DNA of 64,000 nucleotides from Thermodesulfobacteriota bacterium (GCA_963675595.2 CAXXLZ010000002.1:4640001-4704000); one strand, 5' to 3'. Positions 34,859 through 57,505 are shown, numbered from the stretch's first letter. Notes: a model not told the origin generated them from the letters alone. Numbers and translations: made by a program.

Positions 34859-34989
34859 TTTGTCCCCTCGGCAGGAATGAGTTGTTTCGTACTTCGATGC
34901 TATCACGCTATCACGGTGTCTGTGCTATTGCAAGGCCAAGAGTTATCACGTTTCGCCAGGCGAAACCGTTTTTTCAAAAACAAACCCAA

Positions 34990-38251: not shown

Positions 38252-38254
38252 AAA

Positions 38255-40110: not shown

Positions 40111-40771
40111 GGACTCTGACCCCCTTGAGAGCCATCATTTTGCCGATCTCTTCGACGCCGGCCAGCTGCTCGTTGCCGATACGCGGGTACACGGCGGCAA
40201 GAACGTGAAGCCCGGCCTCGTAGTCGTCCAGAAAGCGCCGAATTGCCGCTTCACCGCCGTCCACATCCTCCCGAAGTTCCGCTGTGGAGACGGTGTATTT
40301 TGCCCCTTCCCTGGTCACGAACAGGACCGTGGGCTTTCCGGCCTTCAGGACATTGGATATCTGGGGCAGCAGGGCGAACGGCCTCAACGACCGGCTCACC
40401 GGCAGGAGGCCGACACAACCGGCCGCCGGCAGATAGACTGGGAGCAGCAGCCGCTGGTCCCGCTTGCGGCCAATGCGGCACAGCACGCAGTCCGGGCCGT
40501 TGCAGACGACATAGCCGTTGATCTCGGTTTCAGAGCAGTAGTGAAGGTCAATGGCCTCGCTGTCGGCCGTGAAGGGGATGATGGCGGTTTCGTCGGAGCC
40601 CAGGCGGACTAGTTCGAGCAGTGGCTCCGCCGATTCGGCCGCCGCCACATCAAGAAGGTTGACTCTGTTGGATTGGTTTTCAGACATGGCAGTCTCCTCC
40701 GGCTCTCTTGTTGATTCATCAAATAGGTTGGCCTGTTTCGATTTCCCGTCTCCGCTCATGTTGGACTCCAT
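40088..40771 (-). CDS. Hypothetical Zn-binding protein, putative gp32-like ssDNA-binding protein
   Basis: H..C..CVLC motif (LHYC...VVCNGPDCVLC), acidic beta-rich sequence, overlaps the helicase start. Confidence 0.5.
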   Translation of the reverse strand: MESNMSGDGKSKQANLFDESTREPEETAMSENQSNRVNLLDVAAAESAEPLLELVRLGSDETAIIPFTADSEAIDLHYCSETEINGYVVCNGPDCVLCRIGRKRDQRLLLPVYLPAAGCVGLLPVSRSLRPFALLPQISNVLKAGKPTVLFVTREGAKYTVSTAELREDVDGGEAAIRRFLDDYEAGLHVLAAVYPRIGNEQLAGVEEIGKMMALKGVRVHAGDQRS

Positions 40772-40861
40772 AAAATGTGTTTGATCTGATTGGTTCCGTC
40801 TGCTCTATCTCCTCTGGTGGAGCCCGGCCCAAGGGTGACGGGGAGGGTACTGGTAGAGGAT

Positions 40862-41071
40862 TCATTGCACCGCCCTTACATCCATTGGACCTTCTGGCGA
40901 CTCTGCACTCTCTTCTTTGTCCTCAGCCTCGGCCCATTCCTGCAACACCCGGAAAAAACCCCCGACATTCTCAACCGCCTGCCGGGCATCCTCTTCGGAG
41001 ATCGCCCTGCCGGTCCGGCGCTCGAACAGCGACATGGTCTGTTTAAGAATTTCCGGGCTGTACTGCGCCAT
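40862..41071 (-). CDS. Small hypothetical protein of integrative elements
   Basis: 69 aa, GGAGG RBS; ISEEDARQAVENVGGFFRVLQEW resembles small proteins I recall near tRNA-targeting serine recombinases. Confidence 0.6.
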   Translation of the reverse strand: MAQYSPEILKQTMSLFERRTGRAISEEDARQAVENVGGFFRVLQEWAEAEDKEESAESPEGPMDVRAVQ

Positions 41072-41186
41072 TGCCGCCCTCCAAACAAAAGAGACCCTGA
41101 GGAGCCCAGCCCGACTTGGACTTTGCAGGGTCAGCATCGCCTCGCGGCGATTCTCACTGTCCAGCAAATCGGGCTTTACCCCGATT

Positions 41187-41301: not shown

Positions 41302-42369
41302 CTACAAACAGGAGGGATTGACGTTAAGGGTAAAACGGGTCTTGTACCCATGGACCTTATTGTAGGGGTGGAAGGGATCCCCTTGAAGGGTCGGAAACAC
41401 CTCTCTCAGTTTCTTTCGGATCTGGGACACCCATTTCTTGACTTTCTCGGGACTTGAGAACGCCCCTGTTGAATCCTGGAACACAATTTCTCCGTGGTGC
41501 TCGGCAAATGCACGGAGTATCCTCCAAAGCTTTGAAGGCTGGTATTCCGGGGAGTCTGCTCTTCTCAAATCGCTGAAGCCCATCTCATCAAATGATCGGT
41601 GTTCGGTGTTTCCGGGATACCTGATCTGTACGGTGTGTTCATTCACAAAGGAAATAACGATTTGGTTCCAGCCCGTACCTTCCGGCACGGCAATCGGTAT
41701 GATATCCTGCCTCACCCTGCTTTTTGCGGACAGCAGTTCCGCCAACTCACGAGTATCCAACCCCAACCCATCCTCCGAGGGCATTAGTATATGCAACAGG
41801 GGAATGGCGACGCCCTGCTTCATTTCCTGAGGTCCCGGCTGTCCGGCTGCGACGAGAAAGAAAGGATGGGGATATTGTTCAACCAGGCCGGACTCAAGGG
41901 CCAGATCCATGGACTCGTTGTTGATAATAAAGAAGGCGGACTGTCTTTTTCGGTTGATGACCAGCGAGCCAAGATAATAGGCCCGTTTCTGAATGATTTC
42001 ATCAGGGGGTTGGCCGGTACCAAGAGCCGATGCCAATAGGGTTGCAAAGCGGGGAATATCGATCTGCCATTGCGCAAGGATTGCCGGATCGATCGATACA
42101 CGGCCCGTGTCCTCCCGCTTGTCGCAGACAATGAATAAACGGGGTGGGCGGCCGTCCTCGGTGGGAAAAACGTGAACCGGCATCAGACAGGCGTCTTCGC
42201 AACCGGGACACTCAACAATTCTTGCCGGGGACGCTCTCTTGAGTAGCCCGAGTCGCGTATAGGCCGCAATTTCTTCCTTGGGCCAGGCAGCCGGATGATC
42301 GGCGGAGAGAATTTCTGCCCCTTCTCTCCGGCCGACAGCTGCGAAATGTTTCAGGATTAGTTCGAACAT
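41302..42369 (-). CDS. Hypothetical protein, N-terminal Cys motif and putative C-terminal winged helix
   Basis: CPGCEDAC..IVCD; C-terminal LWRILRAFA..GEI..KKWVSQIRKKL..GYKTRF. Confidence 0.7.
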   Translation of the reverse strand: MFELILKHFAAVGRREGAEILSADHPAAWPKEEIAAYTRLGLLKRASPARIVECPGCEDACLMPVHVFPTEDGRPPRLFIVCDKREDTGRVSIDPAILAQWQIDIPRFATLLASALGTGQPPDEIIQKRAYYLGSLVINRKRQSAFFIINNESMDLALESGLVEQYPHPFFLVAAGQPGPQEMKQGVAIPLLHILMPSEDGLGLDTRELAELLSAKSRVRQDIIPIAVPEGTGWNQIVISFVNEHTVQIRYPGNTEHRSFDEMGFSDLRRADSPEYQPSKLWRILRAFAEHHGEIVFQDSTGAFSSPEKVKKWVSQIRKKLREVFPTLQGDPFHPYNKVHGYKTRFTLNVNPSCL

Positions 42370-43622
42370 TCAGCAACGGTATGGGTACATGGTTCCGCCG
42401 GGTACGGGTACCCTTCTTGTCCCGCTTCCGCGAGCCGGCCTTCCTCCCAGGTTTCTTCCCCGGGCTCAAGGCCGGAGGCCGCCAGCATCTCCCTGATGAT
42501 CAGATCCCGGCCGTCCTGTCTCAGGTTGCAGGAGTTTGGATAGCTGATGTCAAGGCTCCGGGTCTTTCCTTTCAACGATCCGGGAGCGGGACTGAAGAAA
42601 ACTCTCAAGCCCACCTGCGTGACATTATACTCAGACAGGGGCATCGACTCGTTATGGATTTTGTCCAGCAGGTCATACACCGCATCGGGATTATAGGTCG
42701 GGTCCGCCTCCAGGATGATTCGCTCGTTCTTTTTCAGCATATTCGACAGTCGTAGCTTACGAACCCGCACGTCCTCGATGCCGCTTGCGGGATCGAAAAC
42801 AAACTGAAAATTACGATGCTTCAGCGGATTGAGATGATAGACTTTTTCGTCTTTCTCATCCGGTCCGAGCCCGGTCTTCAGAATCGTTTCCGCGAACAAC
42901 CGTTGCAGGTCGGCGATCGCTTTTTTGACCCCGCGCATAAAAATATCCAGAGTGCCGTTGGACTGTGAATAGACGAAAATAACTTCAAAGGCGGGTGTCC
43001 GGGGTGGCCGGGCAAATTCGTTGTCAATCCATTCAATGCTTGCCTGAGTGTAGTCCTCGGGATAGGCGAAAAAATAGTCAAGTTCATTCCGACGATAGGG
43101 CTCTACCTTGCAGTTTTTGCCTTTACCCTCCTCATGGTAAAAATACCTGCTGATCGCCTGCTCCAATCGCGCAATATCCCTCGCTTCAACCAAGGCCGGC
43201 TTTTTCGGGAGATTCTTCCGCTTTCGCCAATAGGATGCCGGAATGCTGTCGGCATGGTGAAACTGGAAAGCACCCCGCCAGTAATCCGGCCGGTTCATGA
43301 ACACCCAGAAGGCTCGATCATGGTGATTCTTCAACGCAGAAAGAATCGGCCCCAGTTCTTCCTCATGCCAGGCGGCCTCGTCGAGAAATGCTTTGACGGC
43401 CCCCTCGGTTGCCATGAAATCTATCGCCCGGAAATCCTTTTCCATCTCGTTGCGCTCTTTTTCCGGCAGCGCAAGCCAGGCTTCATAGACTGATTCGATT
43501 CTTGTTTCCGTAAGTTCCTGGAAGTTGATTTCCTCAAGCACGCCTTTTTCTTTGAAATACCGGGCGAGCAGATTGTTGGGGGCCTGCCGAAAAAAACGTT
43601 GCGGGTTGTACTGTCGGGCCAT
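42357..43622 (-). CDS. Hypothetical protein coupled to the downstream winged-helix gene
   Basis: 421-aa ORF starting MARQYNPQRFFRQ after GAGGGG RBS; 13-nt overlap with next gene. Confidence 0.75.
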   Translation of the reverse strand: MARQYNPQRFFRQAPNNLLARYFKEKGVLEEINFQELTETRIESVYEAWLALPEKERNEMEKDFRAIDFMATEGAVKAFLDEAAWHEEELGPILSALKNHHDRAFWVFMNRPDYWRGAFQFHHADSIPASYWRKRKNLPKKPALVEARDIARLEQAISRYFYHEEGKGKNCKVEPYRRNELDYFFAYPEDYTQASIEWIDNEFARPPRTPAFEVIFVYSQSNGTLDIFMRGVKKAIADLQRLFAETILKTGLGPDEKDEKVYHLNPLKHRNFQFVFDPASGIEDVRVRKLRLSNMLKKNERIILEADPTYNPDAVYDLLDKIHNESMPLSEYNVTQVGLRVFFSPAPGSLKGKTRSLDISYPNSCNLRQDGRDLIIREMLAASGLEPGEETWEEGRLAEAGQEGYPYPAEPCTHTVAECSN

Positions 43623-43662
43623 GGGTACCCCTCGTCTAAGTTGAATGAGATATTGTCGGCGA

Positions 43663-45000
43663 CTAACCGGAAAACTCAAACAGGGACTTTTGATTATTTT
43701 GTTCGTAGCCGTCCTGGTAGTCGCGTACTTCGATGTCAAACCTCTCAAGGGTCTCGACAAAATCATCTTTTACCAGCAGTTCGTCAGAGATGTCGTAGTA
43801 ATCAAATTCAACATGGATCAGGTCGATCATTTGCTGGGCCTTCGGGAAATTGAGCCGATGATCCACATAGGTCTCAACAGCCTGTTTAACGGCTTCGTCT
43901 TCCGAGATTTTTCCGCTCTGCATTTGTCGATACAGTGTCTTGTCGTTCGCAAAGAGTTGGCCCCAGCATCCATTTTCTTCCATGGCCTGAGGACATAGAT
44001 GGTCAATGAGGGCTGTCCGGCTTTCCTTCAGCAGATACACAAGGCTCTTCCGGAGCGGATTCTTGTCTTGACTCTCATCGCCTTTTCCCTCACTCACCAA
44101 ACCATCCATGAGTTCATACATCAGGAAAGCGATACAGTTTTCAAGTGGTCGAATGCTCTTCAGTTCAATCAGGGTTCCATAGCGCCTCGCATCAAAAGTA
44201 TGTTTGGCGGTGACATCACCGGCTTGCATGAGAAAATGATTGATCGCCACCAAGTTCTCCACATCTTCGCGGGTCAGAACATTCCAGCTGCTTTTCAGCC
44301 GAAGATTGGTCTTTGGAAACATATTGTTGAAAGGACGCAGGGAGATGGACTTGTTCTTGATCCTGACGCCGTGCAAGGCCATTTTAAGCAGCTTGTACTT
44401 ATTCCGGTAAAATGTGGTCTTCCGCAGCTCTGCCGGGTCAACAGGCGGGTTCTCTTCGAGCACGGAGAGGGTTGTCTCAATCTCCTGTTCAATCTCTTCC
44501 GAGGCTTTCTGAATTACCGGACAGGTCTGAATGGCGATATTCATCCCTTCGATGTTGATTTCAATCGGTTCCCCCTCAATCTGCCTCAACAGACTCTTGG
44601 CCATGCCACTCCCGCCAATAAAGCCGTTTGGGAAATCGATGTGTTCCGAAACCTCTTCCCAGGATAAGGCCGCCGGTGAATACACCATGACTGCATCATC
44701 AACAATGATAATAGCCAACCTGATATAATTGGCGCTCTGGACATTGAGCCGATCGAGACTCTTGTTTATCAGCTCAAGGGCGGCCTGTTCACCGAATCCA
44801 TAACGGACGGTGTTCTCGGAGGTATCCACATAAAGATCACAGTGCACACCTTTCTTTACCAACTCCAAAAGCTTTTCGATCTCATCAACAAAGTAGCCGG
44901 CCTTGGCGATAACGATCCGGTTCCGGGCTTCTCCAAGAAAAGAAAGAACACTTTCCTTTGTCACTTTGACGAACTGAACAGCAGCGGCTTCTCCCTTCAC
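43663..45000 (-). CDS. Hypothetical protein with degenerate PLD-like N-terminal domain
   Basis: FLGEARNRIVIA..GVHCDLYVD..IRLAIIIVDD..VYS follows PLD topology but lacks HxK. Confidence 0.65.
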   Translation of the reverse strand: MKGEAAAVQFVKVTKESVLSFLGEARNRIVIAKAGYFVDEIEKLLELVKKGVHCDLYVDTSENTVRYGFGEQAALELINKSLDRLNVQSANYIRLAIIIVDDAVMVYSPAALSWEEVSEHIDFPNGFIGGSGMAKSLLRQIEGEPIEINIEGMNIAIQTCPVIQKASEEIEQEIETTLSVLEENPPVDPAELRKTTFYRNKYKLLKMALHGVRIKNKSISLRPFNNMFPKTNLRLKSSWNVLTREDVENLVAINHFLMQAGDVTAKHTFDARRYGTLIELKSIRPLENCIAFLMYELMDGLVSEGKGDESQDKNPLRKSLVYLLKESRTALIDHLCPQAMEENGCWGQLFANDKTLYRQMQSGKISEDEAVKQAVETYVDHRLNFPKAQQMIDLIHVEFDYYDISDELLVKDDFVETLERFDIEVRDYQDGYEQNNQKSLFEFSG

Positions 45001-45013
45001 CTGCGCCCCCGTA

Positions 45014-46822
45014 TCAATTTGATCCCGGCATGTCCCACGTTTTCCTTGCGATATTTGTCAGCATCTTCTGCCTCTGTTCAATACTGCTTGAATCCCACAC
45101 ACCAAACTGGACGAGATCCTGAACCGCTCTGTTGAGCTGTGTGTCCGACCCGACATGTGGCTTCTCCACCAGCGATTTTGTTAGAAGGAACGACGACTGG
45201 AGATAGCCGGGTCGTTTCTCGGCGTAGCCCCGGTTCGAGATGCTCGTGTTGATCGTCTTTTCCAACAGTGTCAGGTTTCCCAGTTTGAGTTTGTAGTCGT
45301 GATACTCCGCCGGTTTGTCGAAACCGTTCAGGACGTCCTCTTCAGGCTGTTGCGGAAGGATATGCTCGACATGCACGGATGAATTCATATAGCCGTCCAG
45401 CTCTGTGAATTTCGGATTACCCCACGCATTCTCCTCGATGAACTGCGTAAGCTTGGCAAGAATATACCGCATCCGATACTGCTGAATGCTTGCTTGGTTG
45501 AGCTCGCTGAAGGCAAAGTCAAAGGGACTGCTTCTTTTGGTCATTTCGGGGATCATATTTTCCTTCAGAAACGCGTCCAGGCCTTTCTCATCTTGAATGC
45601 CTTTGAGCCCCAGCGCCCAACGTGCGAAATTTCTCTCAAGGGTCTTTGACTGCTCGCGAGTGATGATATAGCAGAACAGAAGATTTTCAATGGCGCGGCA
45701 AAGCTTGTCAAATAGAGGCTTCGCCAGATTCCGGCCTGCGAGTAGCAGGATATAATGCTGCCTCAGAGCACCGCCCAGAAGGGATAGATTGCGGAGATAC
45801 CGATTTGCGACGCCCTTCGGATTCTTGGATTCCGAGAAGTAGGCATATGCCTCGGCGCATCCTATGAGCACATCTGCAAACCCTGTAGGATCTGTGTCAA
45901 TCCCGCAGGCGGTCGAATTATTCACAAACCATTGATAGATTTCGTCTTCCCTGATACCCCGATGATGATCAATCTGGTGGTGAGCCATGATGTAATACCG
46001 CAGAAACCGCAATGGCTTCTCTTGGCAACGATCAAGAGTGTCGATCAGCCTTTTCCAACGCTCTTTGAGTTTCGGGTAGTCCTTGTTGTCGGTCTTCATG
46101 AACAGCAGATTCTTCAACAGGTCCATGGCGTTCAATCCGACGCCGCGGTCGTTGATGGTCTCAAAGACCTTCAAGGCATTAGCGATGTTCGGGGTCAAGA
46201 TACGAATCAACTTGATTCGGTTCGTGAAAGCGACGAGGAACCTTTTGATCCTGCTTGGATCATTCTGGAGGTTGATGCGATAAAAGTCGCGGATGTCCCT
46301 GAGGGCCGCCAGAATTCTTTTCACTGATCGTGTTGTCTCCGGGAGGGAGTCGATGGACTGTCCGCTCGTGACAATCTTTTCAAGAATCCCGTCGCTGTCC
46401 TGGTATTGCAGGGTGAGCCGCTGCCGCTCCACGTCCTCGCCCGTTCTTGAATCCGAATAGACGTCCGAAATCTGACCGAGGAGCACCCGAGTGGGTTCAT
46501 CGCCCGCTTGCTTCAAGGCATCCCTTGCGGCACACAAGATAAGATATATCGTGGTCAAGCGTTGCTGCCCGTCAATGAGCTGGAAGATGTTGTCCGACCT
46601 GTCCTTGCAGGCAACGATACTGCCGAGGAAATACTCCGGGCCTTCGATGATTTCGCCTTTCTCGTTATAAAACTCGTCGAGAATATCCTGAAGCAGCTTC
46701 TCCACCTGATCCCTCTCCCAGACGTATTCCCGCTGAAAATCGGGTACGGTATAGAAATCCTTGAGTATTTGAGAGATGGTCAGGTCGTCGGATTCAATTC
46801 TAAACACATTGGATTCGGGCAT
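45014..46822 (-). CDS. DUF262-DUF1524 (GmrSD/SspE-like) nuclease
   Basis: VPDFQREYVW, IDGQQRLTT, FETINDRG, VEHILPQ, LGNLTLL..N. Confidence 0.92.
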   Translation of the reverse strand: MPESNVFRIESDDLTISQILKDFYTVPDFQREYVWERDQVEKLLQDILDEFYNEKGEIIEGPEYFLGSIVACKDRSDNIFQLIDGQQRLTTIYLILCAARDALKQAGDEPTRVLLGQISDVYSDSRTGEDVERQRLTLQYQDSDGILEKIVTSGQSIDSLPETTRSVKRILAALRDIRDFYRINLQNDPSRIKRFLVAFTNRIKLIRILTPNIANALKVFETINDRGVGLNAMDLLKNLLFMKTDNKDYPKLKERWKRLIDTLDRCQEKPLRFLRYYIMAHHQIDHHRGIREDEIYQWFVNNSTACGIDTDPTGFADVLIGCAEAYAYFSESKNPKGVANRYLRNLSLLGGALRQHYILLLAGRNLAKPLFDKLCRAIENLLFCYIITREQSKTLERNFARWALGLKGIQDEKGLDAFLKENMIPEMTKRSSPFDFAFSELNQASIQQYRMRYILAKLTQFIEENAWGNPKFTELDGYMNSSVHVEHILPQQPEEDVLNGFDKPAEYHDYKLKLGNLTLLEKTINTSISNRGYAEKRPGYLQSSFLLTKSLVEKPHVGSDTQLNRAVQDLVQFGVWDSSSIEQRQKMLTNIARKTWDMPGSN

Positions 46823-46825
46823 TCT

Positions 46826-47737
46826 TCATCCTCCGAGGGTGCCGGTTATGATGAGCGGATACGCCGCCAAGTCGAAGGCCGGGCTTGCAGGGTCGTATTG
46901 CCCGCAGCGAAGATGGTACTGGTCGATGTCCAGGCGGGCGAGGTCGTCGGTCTCACCGTCCGCGCCGGCATCGAGGCCGTGATGGAAGGAAACCCCTCCG
47001 AGATCGGTCAGGATATAGCGGTTATGCAGCCTCTGACCGCCCGGCCTTTGGCACCACTGGTATAGAGTGACTTGAAGTCCGTTAGGAATGAGTTTCTGAA
47101 AGGAACTCCGTAAGAAATTCGTCGTGCCGGCATGCAGGCCGGTATGAATCTCGATGAATTCCAGCGGACCGACGGGTCTTTCGTCTCCCAGGATGTCGAA
47201 AAAGGCGCGCAACGACCGCTGATAATTTGGCCTGCCTGGTGATATATGCGGGTCGACGAACTTCACCCACCGGCAGCAGGCAAGCATGTGCCGCACGGCC
47301 GCCGCCATCTCCTGAGCCTCGCGGTTGACCGTGATGCCGTGCGGGTTATCCCACCCCGGACAGGGAGGGTCGCCAAGCCCGTCCTCGCAGAGTATTTCCG
47401 GCCGGGCAGCCGGGTTATTACGGGCCAATATGGCGCGGAAAGGATGGCGGGCATGTTCCTGGGCGGCGTTGTCCAACCAAGTTCTGTTCTCGTCCCAAAC
47501 ACACTCTTTCCGCTTGATCATGGTCTGCTGAAGGCGTGCCAGCAGTTCCTCCAGCCGTTTCCTTTCCATCTCGCTGCCGCCTGCAAAGGAGTCCCAGACT
47601 TTCTTGGCCCATTTCTTCGGGTAACGGGAGACAAGCCGCCCCTGACCGGTGCCGAACTCCCGGATGAAATAGCGGTGGTTTAGCCGGTCGCCCCAGGTGG
47701 CGACCATTTCCGGCTCAAGAGCATACTCGGCGATCAT
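46826..47737 (-). CDS. Hypothetical protein with C-terminal HNR (PLD/MIT_C-like) putative nuclease motif
   Basis: VKFVDPH..LHNRYILTD.GGVSF..GLD; 4-nt overlap with upstream ATPase. Confidence 0.65.
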   Translation of the reverse strand: MIAEYALEPEMVATWGDRLNHRYFIREFGTGQGRLVSRYPKKWAKKVWDSFAGGSEMERKRLEELLARLQQTMIKRKECVWDENRTWLDNAAQEHARHPFRAILARNNPAARPEILCEDGLGDPPCPGWDNPHGITVNREAQEMAAAVRHMLACCRWVKFVDPHISPGRPNYQRSLRAFFDILGDERPVGPLEFIEIHTGLHAGTTNFLRSSFQKLIPNGLQVTLYQWCQRPGGQRLHNRYILTDLGGVSFHHGLDAGADGETDDLARLDIDQYHLRCGQYDPASPAFDLAAYPLIITGTLGG

Positions 47738-49377
47738 GAGAAAAGCTCCTTGGCCCGCTCGGCAAAGAAGCCCTTCGGCCAGCGGTCGACAAAATCACCG
47801 TCTTCGTCCACCCGGATGGGAGTGCAGGTGATGCCGTTCTCACCCTGCTCAACGAAATAGATGGAGAGTTCGGCCGGGCTCAGCGACAGATTCCCCGGGG
47901 CCTCCTGTTCGCCGGTCTCTCGAATCCGGCGCAGGAAACGAAGCATCAGGTGCTCGGAGTGGGTTTCCAGGATAAAGGTGAGGTCCGGGCGCAGCCGTGT
48001 CTGCTCGATGAAAAGGTCCCCCAGGGCCACCTGAATGGCGGGGTGGGTGTGCAGCTCGGGTTGCTCGACGACCAACATTCCGGTCTTCTGGTGCAGGGAG
48101 GCCACCACCACCGGCAGGACCTGGGAGATGCCGACGCCGATGTCCTGGGGGACAAGCTCGATGTTGCGGGCCTCGTCATGAATCAGCAGGCGGCGCAGAA
48201 TCGGCATTGCCAGCAGCTGTTCTCGAATATCCATGTCTTCGTCGAGAATGCGGCCCTGAAGCAGGGCCGGCATTAGCGGATGTTCTTCGTCCAATTCCCG
48301 GTATTTCTTCACCTTGACGCGATAGCCGGAATCAAGCCGTTCCTCGCCGGCCAGCCAGTCGTTTACCCGGTCGATAAAGGTCTCATCACTGAAAAACAGG
48401 GTGTCATAGGCAGCCAAGCCATTGGCCCAGCGGGAGGCATCGGGCGATGTGATGGGTCTGTGCCCGCGCTTGGGAACTTCTCGCAGGGGGCCGAGGTAGC
48501 AGAGCCTGCTCAAACCGTCCCTGACCAATTCGCCGGGACCGGTGATGAGCGAACTCAAGAGCTGAATGAAACTTCTTTCGTCCTCAAAGGTCACGTCCTT
48601 GTTCCACATGCTGTGATCCAACTTGAGCGGAACTCCCCATGCCGGCATGGCTGAGTCTTGCCCGGCCAATGCGATGTTCTTGGTGATTCCCGGCATCCCT
48701 CCTTCCGTATTCAGGAGCTCAAAGAGTCGAAGAAAAATCTCGCCAAAGGCTTCAATGGCTTCACCGTCGAGGCCTTCTCCTTGAAACAACTTTTTCAGGC
48801 GTCCTTTGGCCCCTTCAGGTGACGACTTACCAAGGAAAACCGGGTTAAAGGGCTCAATACGGGTCAGGTTGATCTGTTTGCCGTCCTCGGTCGTTTCGAT
48901 GATCGCCAGCGTTTCACCGTTGACTCCGACCTCATAGGCGGTGAGGAGAGGTCGCTCAATCAGGCCGCTCCAGCGCATCGTGATTTTAACCCAGGCGCTA
49001 TGAACTTCGGAAGGGATGGACCAGAGGTCTGGTTCCTGCCATTGCAGGAAACCGTAATCTTCATAACCTTCCAAGTAACGAGGCAGATCCTCTCCCGAAA
49101 GGTCGAGATCAAGGCGCAGGGTGACGGGAAGGGCCAAGTCATGGCCGTGGACCAGGGTCTCGAAGCCGCCCAGATCGATGGAGTCGCCGCCGAGCAGGGT
49201 CCTGTCCGGATTTAGGTTCCGGCGCTCGAAGATTTCTCGGGCATAGTGCAGGGCATGGATGATGGTGGACTTGCCTGCTGAGTTGGGACCGAAGAGCAAG
49301 GTGATGGGCTTCAACTCCACCCGCACCGGCTCTCGGATGCCCTTGAAATTCTCGATGGTGAGGGCGGTGATGGGCAT
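47734..49377 (-). CDS. ABC/AAA_21-type ATPase with C-terminal DUF3696
   Basis: IENFKGI, GPNSAGKS, YLGPLR, GVGISQVLP, EQPELHTHP, ETHSEH, DRWPKGFF. Confidence 0.9.
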   Translation of the reverse strand: MPITALTIENFKGIREPVRVELKPITLLFGPNSAGKSTIIHALHYAREIFERRNLNPDRTLLGGDSIDLGGFETLVHGHDLALPVTLRLDLDLSGEDLPRYLEGYEDYGFLQWQEPDLWSIPSEVHSAWVKITMRWSGLIERPLLTAYEVGVNGETLAIIETTEDGKQINLTRIEPFNPVFLGKSSPEGAKGRLKKLFQGEGLDGEAIEAFGEIFLRLFELLNTEGGMPGITKNIALAGQDSAMPAWGVPLKLDHSMWNKDVTFEDERSFIQLLSSLITGPGELVRDGLSRLCYLGPLREVPKRGHRPITSPDASRWANGLAAYDTLFFSDETFIDRVNDWLAGEERLDSGYRVKVKKYRELDEEHPLMPALLQGRILDEDMDIREQLLAMPILRRLLIHDEARNIELVPQDIGVGISQVLPVVVASLHQKTGMLVVEQPELHTHPAIQVALGDLFIEQTRLRPDLTFILETHSEHLMLRFLRRIRETGEQEAPGNLSLSPAELSIYFVEQGENGITCTPIRVDEDGDFVDRWPKGFFAERAKELFS

Positions 49378-50564
49378 TACAGTTCTCCTCGAAAGGCACG
49401 CTGGGTGAGGGAATTGAAAAGCCGACTTTTTTCATCCCCGATCCAAAATTGTTTCGATAGCAATTCCTTAATCTTGTTTCGTAAATTAACATATCGTTTC
49501 TGCTCATTCTTGCTAGGCAATGGAATGGGATATTCAGCGAGTTCAGTAATTTGAAGATGCTGTAAAGCATTTCCTTTTCCCATACTTTTAATTTTGTACT
49601 GAACTGGCGGAGTTGAAAGAAAACCTTCAAGGTAACTACTTTCTATTTTTGAAGAATCTGGTTTTATTAAAGCAACCGATTGGTTAATGCAAACTTCGTG
49701 GTCAAGATAAAAGACTGAACAACGACCTATTGTACCGTCCTTGGTTATCAAAATATCGCCTTTTTGTGGTTTTGATTTGTCTGTAAGTGCCTCGAATTGA
49801 TTCTTGTCAGCGAAGTTTACATTGTGTAAATCTATGGATCCCATATGGACATTTTTTGCAGTAATTATTGGAATACCTTTTTTGAGATGTTTCATAGGAC
49901 AAGTAAAACCGTAAGTTATTCTTGATGTAATATTCCTTAGTTGCACAGTCTGATATTTACTTCTATTACTTACCGGGTCCCCAAACATATCAAGGAAGGT
50001 GGCGCGGAGGAAATCGTCGGCGAGTTTGATGGCGGCTTGCCGTTTGCGGCGGATGGCGTCGGCCTTGTCCAGAATGGCCGCGATGCGTTTTTGCTCTTCC
50101 AGTGGTGGGAGGGGGATTTCTACTCTGCTAATGACTTCTTTTGAGACCTCTTTAAAGGTCGCACCGTTGCCGAGTTCCGCAATCCTGGGAGCCATCCACT
50201 TCATGCAGTGATACAAATACTCAGAATGAACTGTATCCCCAGGAACCAGACTTTTAAAACCCTGGTTAGTGCACATTTCACGACCGGTTAGCGCAACCAA
50301 GCCTATTGGTGCTCGTGAGCTGAAGAGAACAGACCCTTTCGGCAAAAGCGTAGCCGAACAACTCTTATGACCCGCTCTAGAAATATATTCAGGAGTGTCC
50401 TCTAAAATGGGACCGTCAAGGGCACTTATATCTTTGGGAGTTACCCAAGGAATATGGTTGTCCCAATACTCGGGAACATTCCGCCGAGGCGTTGCGCCTG
50501 AGACAATCTTGCAACACTCTCCAAGGGACACAATACGCCAATTTTTCGGCAAACTATGGGTCAT
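49377..50564 (-). CDS. hsdS: Type I restriction-modification specificity subunit
   Basis: Two TRDs, [39 protein letters not shown]. Confidence 0.95.
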
Positions 50565-52120
50565 CCCAGCATCCCCCGCAGCTCTTCCATATCCGCCATA
50601 ATCTCCTTCTCCAAGTCCATCATCCTGTCGAGTATCTCCCGGGGCGGATCATACGCCTCTTCCTGGTAGACCGTTTCCTTGTAGCGGTTGATGGAGAGGT
50701 CGTACTTGTTTTCCCTGATGTCGGCGGTCGGCACAAAGAAATGCTTCCTGGTCCGGTCGGTGTCTTTCTTGGGGTCGCGCCGCCTCCAGCGCTCCAGCAT
50801 GTCCGGCAGGTCGTTGGTTTCCACCTCCGCACGTTTGTCGTCCAGGGAAAAGCCGTCCGCCTGTACGTCATAGAAAAACACGTCTTCGGTCCGACCGCCC
50901 TTGGTGAAGACAATGACGGCGGTGGACACCCCGGCATAGGGCTTGAACACCCCGGAGGGCAGTGAGATCACGGCCTCCAGCTGGTTGTCGTCCACCAGCA
51001 TTTTTCGGAGGGCCTGGTGGGCCTTGGAAGAGCCGAAAAGCACGCCGTCCGGTACAATGGTGGCGGATCTTCCGCCGGTCTTAAGCATCTTCAAGATCAG
51101 GGTCACGAAAAGCAGCTCGGTCTTCTTGGTCTTGACCTTTCTCAGGAGCGAGGGGTGGACGTCATCATAATCCAGGCTGCCCTTGAAGGGCGGATTGGCC
51201 ATTACCACGTCGAAATAGCTCTCGGCCTGTTTCGGGAAACGCTCCGGGAAGCTGTTGGAGAGCGTATCGGTGTAATGGATGTTCGGCGAGTCGACGTTAT
51301 GGAGCAACAGGTTCATAGCCGCGATGCGCAGCATGGTGGCGTCGAAGTCGAAACCGTGCAAAAGCCGGGACTCGATATGGTCACGGAAGGGCTCCAATTG
51401 GTCGCCGGGGTAGATGAGATTACCGTCCTCGTCCGGGTATTCCATGCCGGGGGTGGTGTACTCTTTCTGCAGGTAATGCATGGTCTGCACCAGGAAGCCG
51501 GCGGTGCCGCAGGCCGGGTCGCCGATCACCTCATCGGGCTTGGGATCGAGCATCTCCACCATCTTGGCGATGATGTGGCGAGGGGTGCGAAACTGTCCGG
51601 CAATGCCGGCGGTGGTCAGCTTGCTCAGCATGTACTCGTAAAGATCGCCCTTGGTGTCGCCTTTGGCGAGCGGCAGCTTGTCGATGGTGTTGACCGCAAT
51701 GACCAGCAGGCTCGGCTTCTGAATGAGAAGTTGGGCGTCTTTCATGTATTCGCCGAACTTGGCCCCGTCCATGGCCACGGTCTTGAAGTGGGGAAAGACG
51801 CCGTCGCGAACCACGCGGAGCATGTCTTCACCGCTCAAATGCTTGAGATTGGACCATCGCAAATCCTGCTCGGTTTTGACCAATCCCTCCAGGGCCTTGC
51901 GGCGGGCCTCGTCTTGAAGAGGCTTTTCACTGAAGATGCGGCGGAAGGGCTTGCCGGTGCGGGCCGCTTTCTTCTCCTCCCGAGACTCCCGGATGTCGAG
52001 CAGGCGGGCAAACATCAGAAAGGATATCTGCTCGATGACCGAAAGGGGGTTGGCGATGCCGCCGGACCAGAAATCATCCCAGAGTTTGTCTATATTGCTT
52101 CTCAGCCGGCCGTTGATCAT
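50561..52120 (-). CDS. hsdM: Type I restriction-modification N6-adenine methyltransferase
   Basis: [39 protein letters not shown]. Confidence 0.96.
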
Positions 52121-55100
52121 ATTGAAGCTCCCGCCTGCGGTTGAAAGGTCTGAATGATGTTGATCAGCTCGTCGATTTGGGCATCGTCATGAAAAACGCC
52201 GTCCGGGCCGTCGCTGGCTATGGTAATGAAAGGTTCCTCGTAGAGTCTGTCCACGGTGATGACTCCGTATTTCTGGATATGGTTCTTGAGAAGGCGCAAA
52301 AAATGGGTCTGACGTGAGTTTTCAGCGAACCTGCGTGCAAAGTCGGCGAATCGTTCTTCCACAGCCTCAGGCTCCATGCCGATAATGGTGCGGATGATGA
52401 AATCAAGGGGCGGGGCCGATTCGGGGAAAAACTCGCGAAGCAGCTCCAGGTTCACATCCGGATTTTGAGTGAGGGTAAGCGAAATGAGCGATTCCAGGTC
52501 TTTCTTGGAAACCGGATCGCCTCGTCTGATCTTCCTGAGGGCCGGACTGGTGTCGAAGAGTTTTACCAAAGTCTCCTCCACCATCTGGCGATAAAGCTGC
52601 ATGTCGATGGAGCGGACGTTGCTGGTGCGTCGGTCGAGCCTCACGTCACCGTCGGTTACGTCGATGGTCTTGGGCGGCAAAAGGCCGGCGCCGGTCGGCT
52701 TCTGCCGGTGGTGCATGATGCCCCGCAGTCCTTGACGCGCCTCTTCAAGCGCCGCAACGTCGACATGTTCCCAGAACTGCGAGGAGAGAACTTTCTTGAT
52801 CAATTCCGCCCGAGCCTGCACCGGGTTGAGGTGCATGAGAAGACCGCTCACTCGGTCTTGGGTCTGGTCGCGGAAGTCGGCCAGGCGGCCGGAGTCGCGT
52901 AGAAGCTCGATCTGGGCGTTGGTCGTCAACAGGTCGAAGCCGTAGGCGTCGTTATGATCGCGGGTAAAGACCCACTGCATGAGCGGCGCGATGTCGTTTT
53001 TGAGAGCGGCCGCCGTAGCCGGGGCGAACTGGTCCAGCACTCCTTTCGCGAGGATGGCGGTCTTCGCCTTCCACCTCTCCCGTACGGCGATGGTGTCGTC
53101 GGGTAGGGTGTTGATGTCCTTTCTGATCAATTCCACCGTGGCTTTCACGGTGTCGAGATCAGCCTTGGCCAGGGCGGTTTCCGCGAGATGAATGCGGGCC
53201 TCGAAAACAAGCTGCATCACGCTCTTGGAAGGGGCCGGATCAGCCTCCGGCCGCTCGACCTCGAACCGCTCGAAATTGCCCCAGTGATCGAAGATGCGGA
53301 AGTTTTTCTTATCCTTGCCGGGTCCGAAGAGATTGGGGCGGAGGCGGGTGCCCCGGCCGATCATCTGCCAGAACTTCACCCAGGAGAAGACCGGTTTGGC
53401 AAAGACCAGGTTGACCACTTCGGGCACGTCGATGCCGGTGTCGAGCATGTCCACGGACACCGCGATGGTGAGCAGGTTGTCCGGCTCTTTGAAGTCGTCG
53501 ATGAGTTGCTCGGCGCGAGGGTCGTAGTTGTCGATCACCTGGCAGAACTTGCCGCCGTACTGGGGATAGAGTTCGTCGAAGACCTGGGCCAGCATCACGG
53601 CGTGGTGGTGGTTGCGGGCGAACACGATGGTCTTGCCGGGGCGTTGGCCGGCACCGTCTCGGATGCCGTGTTCCATCAGGTTGCGGATGATCTCCCGATT
53701 GGTGTCCCGGTTGAATATCTTCTTGTCGATGTCTTTGGAGTCGTAGTTGAAGGCTTCCGGGTTTTCGCCGGCGTCCTCCAGCTCTTCCCGCTGTTCCTCG
53801 GTCAGTTGGGCGAACCTGATGCCTTCGCGCAAGAACCCGGTGGTGTGAGTATAAACCTCATAGGGCACCAGGTATTTCTCTTCGACCGCCTGCTCTATCG
53901 AGTAATAGGCGGTGGGGTTCTTATCCTGGCAGTCGAAAAGCTTGAAGGTGTTGCGGTTGATCTTGTCCACCGGCGTGGCGGTCAGGCCCACCTGCAGGCA
54001 GTCGAACCACTTGAACAGGTCGCGGTACCGATTGTAGATGGAACGGTGCGATTCGTCGGCAATGATCAGGTCGAAAAAACCGGTGTCAAAGGTCTGGAAT
54101 ATCTTCATCATGGCCGGGTAGGTGGCCAGATAAATGCGCTTGTTGCGGTCCTGCGCAGTCTTGGCGGTAACATAGGTGAGTGGCGCGGACATGAACTCAC
54201 CGAAAACCTTCTTCGCCTGCTTGCGGAGTTCCAGACGGTCGCAGAGAAAGAGGATACGCTGGCCCCAGTTGGTCCGCGAAAGCATGTCCGCGAGGGCCAC
54301 GGCCACCCTGGTCTTGCCGGTGCCGGTGGCCTGTACGATGAGGGCTTTGCGGTGCTTGGCGGTAAACTGTTCACAGACCTTCTGGATAGCCTCGATTTGG
54401 TAAATACGGGCGCCGATGATCTCCTCTTTGGGCTCCGCCTTGGTCAGGGGCTGTTTGATCTCGCGCTGACGCACCAGATATTCAAGGCTGTCCTTGGAAT
54501 AAAAGCCGAAGAGACTGCGGGGCGGGTACTCCTGGGCGTCGTCCCAGATGGAGATGTCGAATCCGTTGGTGTAGAAGATCACCGGCCGCAGGCCGTGCTC
54601 CTTTTCCAGACCATCGGCATAGAGTCTCGCCTGAGTTCGGCCCTTTTCGGCACTCACGGCGGTCTTTTTGGCTTCGATGACCGCAAGGGGTTTCCCGGCA
54701 TCGCTCCAGAGAACGTAATCGGCATAGCCGATTCCTGTTTCGGTAGGCTGGTGGGGCACGTTAACCTCCTGCCAAACCTCGGCGGTGTTGCCGTTGTTCG
54801 GATCGACGTTCCATCCGGCCGCAACCAGCTGCTTGTTGATCAGGCGTTTCCTGGTCGTGGCCTCGTCGAACTTGAGGGCGTCGGCGGCCTGCCTGCCCGC
54901 CTGCTTGAAGGCCAGAAGCTCGGCCTCGGTTCTCTCGGCCTTTTCGGCTTTGGCGCGGAGCGCCTCCATCTGCTGGAGAAGCTCTTGCAGCTGAGCTTCC
55001 TGGGAAGCGAGTTTTTCCAGCGCCGCCTTCTTCTCTTTCTTCAGCCTGGCTTTGGTGTCCTCGGGCGGGGGCGCTTGATAGGCTGGCTGGTCTTCGGGAC

Positions 55101-55488
55101 GGCCGCCGCCATACGCGGCAAAGTACCACCAGCCCAGTTCCCAGGCTTCGCGGAGGCTGCCAAGGGCTGTCTCACTGTCAATCCGATCACCGTGTGCCGC
55201 CTTGTTGCCGTCGAGACGGATCTGGTGCAGCTTGTCCAGCACCACCTTGGGCACGGTGTCCTTGAAGGACTCTTCACCGAGCAGATCGAAGAGGTTGCGT
55301 TGATAGGGCAGGGCGAGGTTATGGATCCGGTAGATCCCTTCCACCAAGTGTTCGGTGAAGGTTCGGAGCTTGATGAGTGCACTTGAGGGGTCGGCGTGGG
55401 CGTACCGTTCGGCGAAACCACCCAGGATAGCCAACTCCGGCCACTGCTCCCGAAGCATCTCAAAATTTATCGAATCCATGATTTCCAT
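52117..55488 (-). CDS. hsdR: Type I restriction endonuclease subunit R (N-terminal DUF4145-like domain)
   Basis: ADYVL..IEAK nuclease, [35 protein letters not shown]. Confidence 0.96.
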
Positions 55489-55499
55489 GCCCCCTATAC

Positions 55500-55516
55500 A
55501 GCAACCGCCGTGCCAA
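55500..55516 (-). promoter_or_regulatory. Sigma54 (-24/-12) promoter upstream of hsdR
   Basis: TTGGCACGGCGGTTGCT matches TGGCAC-N5-TTGC exactly, in the 30-bp gap between activator stop and hsdR start. Confidence 0.85.
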
Positions 55517-55518
55517 AC

Positions 55519-57033
55519 CTATTCGAGGCCGTATTTCTTGAGCCAGTTGGTCAGCGTCTGATAGCTCGACAGCCCCAGTGTTTTCGCAGTCTTTGTCTTG
55601 TTGCCGTTGTTCAATTCAAGCGCCCGTTCGAGATAATGGACCGCCACCCTCTCCATGATCTCCGGCAAGTCGATTCCCTGAGTAAGAGGTTGGTGGAGAA
55701 TGCCGTCCTTTCCTTTGTCTGTAGCCTGCGGAACCGGGAGCAGCGCGTCACGGATATCCTCCTCGCCGATCTCCTCGTCCAGCGACCAGACCGCCGCCCT
55801 GGTCAAAGTATTCTGCAGCTCCCGTACATTGCCCGGCCAGGCGTGGCGAATCAGAAGGTTTCTTGCGGAAACAGAAAGTTTCTTTTTCTTGAAGCCCGGT
55901 TCGCTGTGGCTCTCCCGGTTGATCCGGTCCAGAAATTGATCGATGAGCAGGCCGACATCCCCTTCGCGCTCGCGAAGAGGCGGCAGCTTGATCACCGCCA
56001 CGGCCAGCCGGTAAAAAAGATCCTCCCGGAAGCACCCGGCCCCCACCTCGTCGATAAGATTTCTGTTGGTGGCCGCAATAATCCTTACGTCAACTTTCCG
56101 GGGCTTGATCGCGCCGATCCGCTTGACCTCCCCTTCCTGCAGGGTGCGCAGCAGCTTGACCTGCATATCTTTCGGCAGTTCGCCGATCTCGTCAAGAAAA
56201 ACGGTGCCGGTGTGGGCCGCCTCAAACTGGCCGACTCTGCCTGTAGCAGCCCCGGTGAAGGCCCCTTTCTCATGACCGAACAGCTCGGACTCGACCAGTT
56301 CAGCCGGAATCGCCCCGCAGTTGATGGCCGTAAAAGGCTTGTCCCTGCGAGGGCCGGCGTCATGAATGGCGCGGGCGAACAGTTCCTTGCCGGTGCCGGA
56401 TTCGCCTTCGATCAGCACCGGGATGGAGCGTGGCGCAATCCGCCGCGCCTTGAGCACAACCCGCTGCATCACCTCGCTGCGGTGGACGATGTCATCAAAC
56501 TCCGGGGCCTCGGCGGGCAGGCCGGCGGCCAACCGCTCCAGGGTCTGGTCCGGCCTCCTGAGCAGATTGGGTACAAAATCAGCGGAAATGTCGAAAGGCA
56601 CCGAAGCGGTGTAGACACCGTGCTCTTTGGTGGATTCAATTAATACCGCCGGAAAACGGGCTTTGGCGAGCAGTATCCAGACCGCCGCCATGGCCGGGGT
56701 GCCTGGGCTCAAATGAAAAAACAGATCGGCCTCGGGACCGTACTCCCTGATCTTTTCGGTGATAATCGCCGACGCGGCCTGATAGATTTCCCCGAAATTG
56801 GTGGGACTGGAAAGCTGTACCTGCAGGAGAAGGATTTTCGCCGGCGTCATTGGTGTCAGCCAGGAGATATAGCTTTCCGCCAAAGACCTCTCCCAGTTGT
56901 TGAGCAACACCACTTCAGTGTATGTCTGTGCCCGGACGGCCTGCGCTATAGGCCCCAATCCGATATCGGGCACACCGGACGCCGCCTTGAAGTCCGTGGC
57001 TCCCACCCAGCAAAATAGAATCCGAGCCTCCAT
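55519..57033 (-). CDS. Sigma54-dependent activator with N-terminal RtcR/CARF-like domain
   Basis: ILFCWVGATD, FHLSPGTPAMAAVW (CARF/RtcR-like), [23 protein letters not shown]-terminal HTH. Confidence 0.9.
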   Translation of the reverse strand: MEARILFCWVGATDFKAASGVPDIGLGPIAQAVRAQTYTEVVLLNNWERSLAESYISWLTPMTPAKILLLQVQLSSPTNFGEIYQAASAIITEKIREYGPEADLFFHLSPGTPAMAAVWILLAKARFPAVLIESTKEHGVYTASVPFDISADFVPNLLRRPDQTLERLAAGLPAEAPEFDDIVHRSEVMQRVVLKARRIAPRSIPVLIEGESGTGKELFARAIHDAGPRRDKPFTAINCGAIPAELVESELFGHEKGAFTGAATGRVGQFEAAHTGTVFLDEIGELPKDMQVKLLRTLQEGEVKRIGAIKPRKVDVRIIAATNRNLIDEVGAGCFREDLFYRLAVAVIKLPPLREREGDVGLLIDQFLDRINRESHSEPGFKKKKLSVSARNLLIRHAWPGNVRELQNTLTRAAVWSLDEEIGEEDIRDALLPVPQATDKGKDGILHQPLTQGIDLPEIMERVAVHYLERALELNNGNKTKTAKTLGLSSYQTLTNWLKKYGLE

Positions 57034-57505
57034 AGCCAAACGGAAATACAAGATCTCTTGCGAAGACGTAAAGTATTTTGTTGTCAACGAGATGAAAACA
57101 GGCGACCCTTGGCAGTCCAGGCCCCTGTTTGTCTTTCCGCCGGCGGGGAAGGTGGCCGGAAGCGCGATGCAAATCCCGGCGAAATGATTGCGGGGCCTGT
57201 CACAGTGGCCCCTCCATATGTTGGTGGTGAGGACTCTGAGACTCTGTGAGGGTAGGGGGCTTAGCCGTGGGTATGACCCATCCGACCGAAACGGAGCGAT
57301 GGAACGGTGAGAGGCGTACACGGCTGCTTGACCGGCGGAATGGAAAGCCCACGGCGCCCGGTCTGTGCCCCTTGACTGACGATTTCATGACAACGGGCGT
57401 GAACAAAAAAATAGGAGCAAAACGAAATCGACAATCAAATCCGAATGTTAGTGTCACGTAGTGAAAGGATTGGGCGCTCTCCATAATAGTATTGAAATAC
57501 CGCAA

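Follow-up and report, generated by a model that had tools for sequence, protein, structure and literature searches.

Regulators of the CARF-AAA+-HTH type that resemble RtcR and are linked to genes of restriction-modification (R-M) were described by Makarova in 2014 (PMC4012209), with the prediction that they activate the downstream genes through sigma-54 when they detect either RNA with a cyclic phosphate or a phage nucleotide. Bell (2024, PMC11090510) described defence superoperons that contain CoCoNuTs and are headed by RtcR homologues, with a type I R-M system almost always next after the homologue, and proposed an order of restriction first and abortive infection later; its main text has a single mention of a promoter and one of an upstream activating sequence, and locates neither. 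Among the relatives compared here, only the RtcR of E. coli and Salmonella, which controls rtcBA RNA repair, is reported to have a shown ligand; its CARF domain binds tRNA halves carrying a cyclic phosphate and oligomerises (Hughes 2020, PMC7790460). Menshen systems (Li 2025, PMC12065111) often lie near type I R-M genes and have a DUF262 protein, NsnA (ParB-DUF262 without HNH), encoded directly before the ATPase NsnB; these loci were collected through DUF262, so pairs lacking NsnA would have escaped. Two-gene defence systems of an ABC ATPase and a PIN protein are also known (HEC-03; bioRxiv 2024.01.29.577857), and in Myxococcus xanthus parts of sigma-54 promoters and sites of the activators Nla28 and Nla6 are reported to sit in coding sequence (PMC9765219).

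The locus analysed here (positions are those of the window, the whole 64-kb stretch of DNA that was analysed) shares with the PMC4012209 regulators of RtcR_PspF2 type the domain order, the lack of linked rtcBA and a type I R-M system directly downstream, and with the PMC11090510 superoperons a 5'-terminal RtcR homologue followed by type I R-M, and a long train of co-directional genes. It differs in that we found no promoter or binding-site map and no Menshen-like cargo in the former, and in that the late effector here is a predicted ATPase and PIN-PLD pair, no CoCoNuT having been identified downstream (no McrB-family match was found among the nine downstream genes). Like the E. coli and Salmonella RtcR it has a CARF-AAA+-HTH activator, predicted to act on a sigma-54 promoter, but the activator is co-directional with its putative targets (P. 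aeruginosa rtcR is divergent) and these are restriction and nuclease genes instead of rtcBA. The effector pair resembles the inPIN + PB-PLD1 variant of Menshen (a DUF3696 ABC ATPase, then a PIN-like protein with a MIT_C-type PLD domain and HxR motif), but without NsnA. The reported Nla28/Nla6 sites serve the starvation response at many loci, whereas here one pair of sites occupies the same activator codons in several phyla. Makarova 2014 and Bell 2024 had already put forward the wiring itself as a prediction, and what is new here is a map of its candidate control sites; in the literature searched, supplements aside, we found neither an experimental test of RtcR-like activators switching on restriction, predicted since 2014, nor any mapping of their sites. 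We consider it likely that the locus is a portable sigma-54 switch, in which a CARF activator, a promoter box and two palindrome pairs turn on R-M and nuclease genes upon an alarm. Its features, with the evidence for each, are as follows.

57048..57081, minus strand: upstream palindrome pair (pair score across orthologues)
55519..57033, minus strand: CARF-AAA+-HTH sigma-54 activator of RtcR_PspF2 type, 504 aa (PADLOC, Pfam, fold search)
55853..55886, minus strand: intragenic palindrome pair (matrix match, synonymous-recoding test)
55500..55516, minus strand: sigma-54 -24/-12 promoter box (sequence, consensus match, conservation)
52117..55488, minus strand: hsdR, restriction subunit of a type I system, 1123 aa (PADLOC REase_I, E 8e-280)
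50561..52120, minus strand: hsdM, N6 methyltransferase, 519 aa (profile matches, motifs)
49377..50564, minus strand: hsdS, specificity subunit, 395 aa (profile matches)
47734..49377, minus strand: ABC ATPase resembling Menshen NsnB, DUF3696 at its C-terminus, 547 aa (Pfam, PADLOC)
46826..47737, minus strand: NsnC-like effector with PIN-like N-domain and MITD1-type PLD domain, 303 aa (model, fold comparison)
45014..46822, minus strand: GmrSD/HEC-06-like type IV nuclease, 602 aa (GmrSD_N and GmrSD_C; HEC-06, E 1e-83)
43663..45000, minus strand: conserved protein with no family match, 445 aa (homologue search)
42357..43622, minus strand: phage/mobile-element family protein, 421 aa (phrog_37634, E 5e-32)
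41302..42369, minus strand: protein paired with the 421-aa one and carrying a four-cysteine motif, 355 aa (no family match)

The activator and its promoter box

Residues 4-504 of the activator match the full-length CARF_AAA_HTH model of PADLOC (PDLC01995, E 1e-198, 659 bits), which together with hsdRMS downstream assigns it, on sequence, to the R-M-linked RtcR_PspF2 class. Pfam recognises Sigma54_activat and a C-terminal Fis-type HTH (HTH_8), and the AAA+ motifs (Walker A, Walker B, and GAFTGA at residue 257) are intact. The N-terminal domain is predicted to have a CARF fold (model pLDDT 88); its top Foldseek matches are all CARF proteins (best Csm6 6tug, E 3e-8, TM 0.68), although a sequence-profile search of the PDB with the CARF alignment returned no CARF protein. 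The pocket motifs WxGxxD and HLSPGT (HxSPGT), which follow modelled strands 1 and 4, are invariant in 27 orthologues. The activator is not RtcR proper: the N-domain scores 19.8 bits against Pfam RtcR (PF06956; cut-off 23.1), the protein scores 341.9 against the RtcR equivalog NF038308 (cut-off 650), rtcB and rtcA are not adjacent, and the only rtcB in the genome (C2:430011) is about 4.3 Mb away on the contig. Since the N-domain falls under the Pfam RtcR cut-off and has a Csm6-like fold, the ligand of RtcR need not carry over. The activator's neighbours are R-M genes and McrBC-like genes, the McrBC-like pair lying upstream. RtcB is present in 25 of 26 genomes with the activator, a count that is uninformative without a background rate.

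The minus strand reads TTGGCACGGCGGTTGCT at 55516-55500, upstream of the first gene, hsdR; this is the consensus -24/-12 form GG-N10-GC and matches the consensus at 12 of 12 positions including flanks. The box begins 2 nt after the activator's TAG, which ends at 55519, and lies in the 30-bp gap before the hsdR ATG at 55488; the predicted +1 is at about 55489-55488. Exact TGGCAC-N5-TTGC occurs once in the window and 16 times in the genome (0.15 per 64 kb), whereas one-mismatch versions are at chance level (3 in the window, mean 3.75), so the case for the box lies in its perfect match, position and conservation. It is found no more than 60 nt after the activator stop in 26 of 35 orthologues (at 0-3 nt in 21 of these) and within 300 nt of the stop in none of 43 non-CARF activators used as controls, although the orthologues are related and were all found through one query, so that such counts are not independent events. 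The nine orthologues that fail the strict rule comprise four with an altered -12 element, two broken activator genes and three without a box. Which gene comes first behind the conserved box varies: in some loci it is an hsdR, whose product belongs to one or other of two unrelated types, and in others the ATPase gene. The genome encodes an RpoN (TIGR02395, 448.6 bits, above cut-off) with no stops.

Two palindrome pairs

The upstream pair, ACAAAATACTTTAC (57081-57068) and GCAAGAGATCTTGT (57061-57048), has a 20-bp period and lies 14 nt before the activator ATG. A matrix trained on these very sites, in the DNA preceding activator starts, gives the pair a score of at least 12 in 25 of 31 orthologues, against a shuffled maximum of 10.9. 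In 21-23 of the 23 upstream pairs that were aligned, TTG and TA have a spacing of 17 nt, and a Shine-Dalgarno-like word precedes the activator in 3 of 31 orthologues. This pair is likely an autoregulatory operator overlapping a sigma-70-type promoter, which is probably leaderless.

The second pair, AAAAGAAACTTTCT (55886-55873) and GCAAGAAACCTTCT (55866-55853), has the same 20-bp period and lies inside the activator reading frame, at codons about 382-393; the -24 element follows about 340-370 bp further downstream. These sites were kept out of the matrix training. The pair scores better than synonymous recodings of the same codons, both here (p=0.001) and elsewhere (p<=0.01 in 30 of 31 orthologues; p<=0.007 in 5 of 5 held-out Proteobacterial plasmid homologues), and the codon for Ala390 is GCA in 30 of 31. 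It is present in 33 of 35 orthologues and in none of the 43 non-CARF controls, and in an unbiased genome sample 7 of 8 orthologues have it, the eighth also lacking the box. The whole 6.8-Mb genome contains only two such palindrome pairs, both in this cassette. The intragenic pair is likely an enhancer bound by the activator; synonymous changes to about 11 codons would leave the protein unaltered. Four boxless loci (L071, L075, L021 and L054) keep the pair, so pair and box covary imperfectly. A sister subfamily with a different recognition helix provides a natural control for this layout: none of its 7 members has the intragenic pair, and 6 of the 7 have a different palindrome past the stop, with a box 103-119 nt downstream. 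A search for the IHF consensus between enhancer and box found just three 2-mismatch sites with no clear codon bias, and no IHF site is claimed.

A first-pass annotation of this DNA had read the box at exactly this place in the gap before hsdR, 2 nt past a CARF/RtcR-like activator, and had proposed that enhancer sites lie within the activator's coding sequence; our measurements agree on the former and supply a candidate pair for the latter. It had also made its reading depend on a CARF fold at the activator's N-terminus and on conservation of the box in homologous loci, both of which were found. As a whole its interpretation, that a nucleotide or RNA damage signal switches on restriction and accessory nucleases, is partly supported: the conserved box, the predicted CARF fold, the intact activator, rpoN and the candidate enhancer sites speak for it, the signal and the inducibility are predictions, and the extension of one regulated defence unit over all 14 kb is weakened.

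The downstream genes and the extent of the operon

Nine genes follow the box, all on the minus strand, and as first annotated they are joined by overlaps or gaps of at most 40 nt: hsdR/hsdM and hsdM/hsdS overlap by 4 nt, hsdS/ATPase by 1 and the ATPase and 303-aa genes by 4, after which come gaps of 3, 13 and 40 nt and a 13-nt overlap (421-aa/355-aa). The earlier labels of hsdR, hsdM, hsdS, ATPase and GmrSD hold up in profile searches. The predicted type I system appears intact, with the nuclease, Walker A and DESH motifs of HsdR and the DPACGT and NPPF motifs of HsdM all present. The GC content of hsdS (0.43) is below that of the neighbouring genes.

The ATPase matches Pfam AAA_15 and DUF3696, and PADLOC NsnB (E 2e-40) and PDC-M55A (E 7e-42). 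The 303-aa protein, annotated earlier as an "HNR protein", does have an H-N/D-R motif, but its domain make-up is PIN-like plus PLD-like: its model (pLDDT 90) aligns with MITD1 (Z 11.1, rmsd 3.1, 125 aligned) and with PIN (Z 7.2, rmsd 4.3, 113 aligned). In its family the PLD part has invariant D162, H238 and R240, and the PIN-like domain has no invariant acidic residues. The protein is predicted to be a nuclease, and as modelled it fits the description of NsnC (an inactive PIN-like domain plus a nuclease domain); PADLOC NsnC matches 2 of the family's 16 members, and those weakly (best E 0.008). Of the 13 genomes that encode the PIN-PLD protein, 12 have a CARF activator, against a background of 25 in 400 overall, and in 8 of the 13 the PIN-PLD gene is on the activator's contig and strand, 3-13 kb downstream. 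The gene upstream of the ATPase here is hsdS and not a DUF262 NsnA, and in related loci none of the scanned ORFs upstream of the ATPase has DUF262. The locus encodes a single DUF262 protein, a complete GmrSD that also has DUF1524, and its gene lies downstream; the DGQQR and EHILP motifs of this protein agree with the DGQQR and (D/E)HxxP reported for GmrSD/HEC-06 (bioRxiv 2024.01.29.577857). No GmrSD homologue was found in the activator loci examined, and this gene appears to be accessory cargo.

The first-pass annotation treated the whole 14 kb down to 41302 as one activator-controlled defence operon. Every junction of at most 40 nt is in accord with this, as are promoter-like (11 against 9.0) and terminator-like (21 against 21.5) sites at chance level, but we find it doubtful that a single regulated unit extends so far. 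The 3' end of the 445-aa gene and the 421-aa, 355-aa and 227-aa (SSB-like) genes are syntenic in L091 without defence genes (the one syntenic relative found, a truncated remnant locus), so that the last three genes go together with genes of the element's replication side; the 421-aa family is phage-associated, and the last three genes were not found in the activator loci examined, although the 10-kb flanks often stop too short to reach them. They are probably the backbone of an integrated element, at most read through. This bears only on the extent of the operon and is compatible with the switch proposed above.

The 445-aa protein had been called PLD-like, a label that we could not confirm: it has no HxKxxxxD catalytic motif, no PDB sequence match and no profile match to the 303-aa family. 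None of its 91 homologues has a Pfam domain, 1 of 40 family members matches TrmB (E 0.004), and no real match was found in 400 genomes of the phylum or in plasmids. The Atlas look-alike clusters of the 421-aa protein are about 50% viral, and a relative sought on viral contigs was not found. C57, C61 and C82 of the 355-aa protein are invariant, and in L084 a similar ORF follows the 421-aa homologue; L085 was dropped as a relative, its match being a chance one to a glycosyltransferase region. A short BLAST search for a duplicate of the tRNA-Asn end, at the island's far end, found none.

The proposed switch and its alternatives

Activator dimers on the upstream pair would cover the activator's own sigma-70-type promoter and hold its level low, and those bound to the intragenic pair would reach the sigma-54 polymerase at the box by looping over about 350 bp. 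The behaviour of RtcR suggests that oligomerisation and promoter opening would be triggered by a ligand, RNA with a 2',3'-cyclic phosphate end being the most probable one. The transcript from about 55489 would then carry hsdR-M-S followed by the NsnB/NsnC-like pair and GmrSD, an order that implies DNA restriction first and toxic nuclease second, and the transcriptional switch may substitute for the missing Menshen sensor NsnA. The fuller reading, that the activator gene is its own enhancer, with fixed codons making up the binding sites, that the stop-fused promoter puts whatever defence gene arrives behind it under the alarm, that this arrangement replaced NsnA and that R-M including the methylase is inducible, is plausible but held tentatively. 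We did not adopt a positive feedback loop running through the PLD effector, since no PLD-family nuclease is known to generate cyclic phosphates. The locus family supplies the exact promoter, a candidate operator sequence and both operator positions, along with the sister-subfamily control layout and a tightly linked Menshen-like effector without NsnA; if the switch operates as proposed, signal-induced type I restriction would be shown and an assay for a new CARF ligand would be at hand.

A type I methylase must act ahead of restriction. In 10 of 10 loci the final 260 nt of hsdR showed no sigma-70 consensus that might serve hsdM, so under strict inducibility the host DNA would stay unmethylated before induction, an awkward state of affairs if the restriction system is to protect. 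These points favour an operon that depends on sigma-54 and the activator yet is expressed basally or constitutively, with the CARF domain tuning it through a protein partner or common metabolite in place of an infection alarm, and the E. coli RtcR CARF has been reported to bind the RtcA and RtcB proteins (PMC9650030). We think this unlikely, given the invariance of the CARF pocket motifs and the resemblance of the effector pair to toxic ATPase-nuclease systems (HEC-03/04 are reported to be toxic when induced; bioRxiv 2024.01.29.577857), whose toxicity favours tight control.

It is also improbable, in our estimate, that the cassette eavesdrops on another immune system, its ligand being a cyclic oligoadenylate or a comparable second messenger that type III CRISPR (Cas10) or a cyclase of CBASS produces. 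The closest folds are indeed cA6/cA4-binding CARF domains such as Csm6, and Cas10 is present in this genome and in 14 of 26 activator genomes against 56 of 201 sampled (Fisher p 0.012, uncorrected for kinship, genome size and overlap of the two sets). However, no RtcR CARF structure is among the fold matches, so their ranking does not compare Csm6 with RtcR; 12 of the 26 genomes have no strong Cas10 match, including the near-complete G333, G381, G209 and G001 with intact cassettes; and SMODS cyclases, a family that covers part of the cyclases, were found in 4 of the 26, with no match in this genome.

Finally, it is very unlikely that the intragenic pair is a roadblock or looping partner for autorepression, with activation coming from the upstream pair 1.55 kb off: the intragenic pair is kept in some loci without a box near the stop, and L004, L026, L055, L065 and L067 have (by eye) a divergent sigma-54-like box about 100-150 nt before the upstream pair, which may therefore act as an enhancer there, but the intragenic pair and the box are both missing from L065 and L159, and in L008-L011 and most plasmid loci they are both retained although no upstream pair scores there.

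The activator and its sigma-54 box

The features of the locus, in window positions, are the following:

57506-60825, minus (the activator's strand): McrB/McrC-like pair upstream of the activator and about 470 nt away, GC 0.33-0.37
57081-57048: upstream pair of candidate binding palindromes, passing the matrix threshold
55886-55853: intragenic pair of candidate binding palindromes, passing the matrix threshold
55516-55500, minus: sigma-54 box TTGGCACGGCGGTTGCT, 2 nt past the stop of the 504-aa activator ORF (57033-55519) and 12 nt ahead of the first hsdR ATG
32902-41167: tRNA-Asn, serine integrase, PolA-like, 612-aa and SSB-like genes of the integrated element

Along its full length the activator fits the PADLOC model RtcR_PspF2 CARF_AAA_HTH (E 1e-198), and it does not reach the RtcR cut-offs in profile searches. 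Its Walker A, GAFTGA and Walker B motifs are all intact, and rpoN is present in the genome. The first-pass annotation called the N-terminal domain CARF-like, and a model of it built with 27 orthologues (pLDDT 88) agrees, having CARF structures as its top fold matches (Csm6 at E 3e-8).

The consensus box described in that annotation is indeed read 2 nt past the activator stop, and the exact sequence TGGCAC-N5-TTGC occurs nowhere else in the window and 16 times in the genome. The proposed check of its conservation was run on the best 80 of 104 homologous loci, which comprise 37 orthologues (35 scored, as L007 and L036 have too little downstream DNA) and 43 non-CARF activators. Under a fixed textbook consensus (score at least 10/12, no more than 60 nt past the stop) the box is found in 26 of the 35 orthologues, 21 of these at 0-3 nt, as against none of the 43 controls, which were allowed 300 nt. 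The nine orthologues that fail include four with an altered -12 element in the same place, two with broken activator genes and three with nothing. The first cargo gene differs among 36 orthologue loci (17 begin with hsdR, which comes in two distant types, and 11 with a homologue of the ATPase), so it is the activator, and not hsdR, that the box accompanies. From the usual sigma-54 spacing we place +1 at 55489-55488, which would leave the first hsdR ATG without a leader unless translation starts at the ATG at 55479. An ATG 13-14 nt past the -12 C is also present in L018, L030, L053 and L055.

Paired palindromes before and within the activator gene

Reading of the DNA that precedes activator starts revealed a 14-bp palindrome (consensus RYAARWWWWYTTRY) that comes in pairs at a period of 20 bp. 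With these upstream regions as training set, a matrix reaches a score of 12 or more in 25 of the 31, against a shuffled maximum of 10.9, a comparison that is circular in being made on the training regions. Coding sequence was no part of the training, and there the matrix detects a further pair of equal period about 365/345 nt before the activator stop. When each gene is recoded synonymously from its own codons, this intragenic pair significantly outscores the recoded versions in 30 of 31 loci (p<=0.01). The codon for Ala390 is GCA in 30/31 loci (22% expected), Ile386 is ATT in 23/23 and Leu393 is CTT in 20/21. The one locus without a significant intragenic pair, L065, also has no box. Held-out Proteobacterial plasmid homologues carry the pair in five of five cases, as do seven of eight close orthologues (nine found, eight fetched) from 400 genomes sampled evenly across the phylum, the eighth again having no box. 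Only two pairs in the 6.8-Mb genome pass the threshold, and they are the two listed. The earlier suggestion that enhancer sites lie inside the activator's coding sequence is supported, as regards these candidate sites, by the recoding test, the plasmids and the sample; a counter-point is that four loci without a nearby box retain the intragenic pair. Intragenic sigma-54 elements have a precedent in M. xanthus (PMC9765219).

At the upstream pair, TTG and TA are spaced by 17 nt in 21-23 of 23 loci, and an SD-like word is present at only 3 of 31 activator starts, which suggests that this pair overlaps a leaderless sigma-70 promoter, with autorepression; the window's own hexamers are weak. By eye, a second, divergent sigma-54-like box lies about 100-150 nt upstream of the operator pair in L004, L026, L055, L065 and L067, and none was seen at that place in the window.

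A sister CARF-activator subfamily, 34-38% identical and examined in seven of its 16 genomes (L143, L146, L149, L150, L155, L160 and L161), has a different recognition helix. None of its seven loci has the intragenic pair; an AACC-NN-GGTT-type palindrome lies just past the stop (4/7 by pattern, the remainder by eye) and the box follows 103-119 nt downstream of the stop in 6/7. This is the ordinary layout and is usable as a control. Several sister loci have a conserved 92-116-aa ORF ahead of hsdR, with no Pfam match in those scanned.

The cargo genes and the NsnB/NsnC-like pair

Overlaps, or gaps no longer than 40 nt, join the nine ORFs downstream of the box, as the claim of a single 14-kb defence operon states; its last three genes probably lie outside the defence set. 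The 445-, 421- and 355-aa proteins match no family with a function in profile and family searches, and the "PLD-like" label of the first is not confirmed, an HKD motif being absent. Because L091 keeps these genes in synteny with the SSB-like gene of the element, with no defence genes alongside, and because about half of the look-alikes of the 421-aa protein are viral, we read all three as probable element backbone, from one syntenic locus and from activator-locus flanks that frequently end too early. Homologues of the 421-aa gene also follow an HTH and metallopeptidase-like pair (L083, 1240-3247) and a type III restriction-like gene (L084, 92-3713), labels read from sequence. The cassette region is of mixed GC and ends at the serine integrase beside tRNA-Asn.

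The hsdR, hsdM and hsdS genes are intact. The GmrSD protein is HEC-06-like, and no homologue was seen in the other activator loci examined. Elsewhere (L014, L067, L079, L156) a 1330-1420-aa methyltransferase-specificity fusion follows hsdS in place of the ATPase/PIN-PLD pair. On plasmids of Rhodoferax (L087) and Polaromonas (L089) an activator of this type is followed by a VWA - PP2C - kinase - AAA train in place of R-M genes, which resembles the CoCoNuT contexts of Bell 2024.

The ATPase carries DUF3696 and matches NsnB. The "HNR protein" of 303 aa keeps its invariant H238 and R240 (D162 is also invariant), and its model is more specifically a PIN-like domain plus a MITD1-type PLD domain, matching the inPIN + PB-PLD1 variant described for Menshen NsnC (PMC12065111). 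No DUF262 match, and hence no NsnA, was found in the upstream ORFs scanned (all but some small ones). In a census of the same 400 genomes (E<1e-25) there are 13 effector carriers, one cut by a contig end, and 12 of the 13 also carry a CARF activator from one or other subfamily, compared with 25/400 overall, a contrast whose Fisher value is inflated by kinship among the genomes. The activator lies 3-13 kb upstream on the same contig and strand in eight of the 13; four have the two on separate contigs, and G110 has the effector with no CARF activator. By these gene neighbourhoods, the NsnA-less Menshen-like effector is tightly linked to the activator. In L154 (G034:C33, 1385-3527) a PIN-PLD gene truncated at the contig end is immediately followed by patatin and CD-NTase (CBASS-like) genes.

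The family and its predicted signal

Makarova 2014 (PMC4012209) described the activator family beside R-M systems and predicted sigma-54 activation by a cyclic-phosphate or nucleotide signal, and Bell 2024 (PMC11090510) reported superoperons that begin with RtcR and continue with type I R-M; we located no promoter or binding-site positions in the main text of either. The literature searched (main texts, Makarova 2020 lying outside) yielded no experimental test of these R-M-linked activators. The feature is real, with good support in sequence, and the locus belongs to a family whose sigma-54 control is so far a prediction. What is contributed here is a mapped control anatomy and the tight linkage to an NsnA-less Menshen-like effector.

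If the activator is gated by a ligand, RNA with a 2',3'-cyclic phosphate would be our best guess, by analogy with RtcR (PMC7790460), with a chance slightly short of even. Cyclic oligoadenylate is a possible ligand, as Cas10 is present in 14/26 activator genomes compared with 56/201, but the other 12 have no strong Cas10 match and SMODS cyclases are found in 4/26.

No sigma-70 consensus was found near the end of hsdR in ten of ten loci, so methylase expression may depend on the same sigma-54 switch. In that case host DNA would stay methylated through basal expression, or else induction would be partly self-destructive. RtcB genes with one in-frame TGA inside the full match, possibly encoding selenocysteine-containing proteins, are present in 9/25 genomes (G348, G001, G212, G169, G101, G031, G199, G384 and G324).
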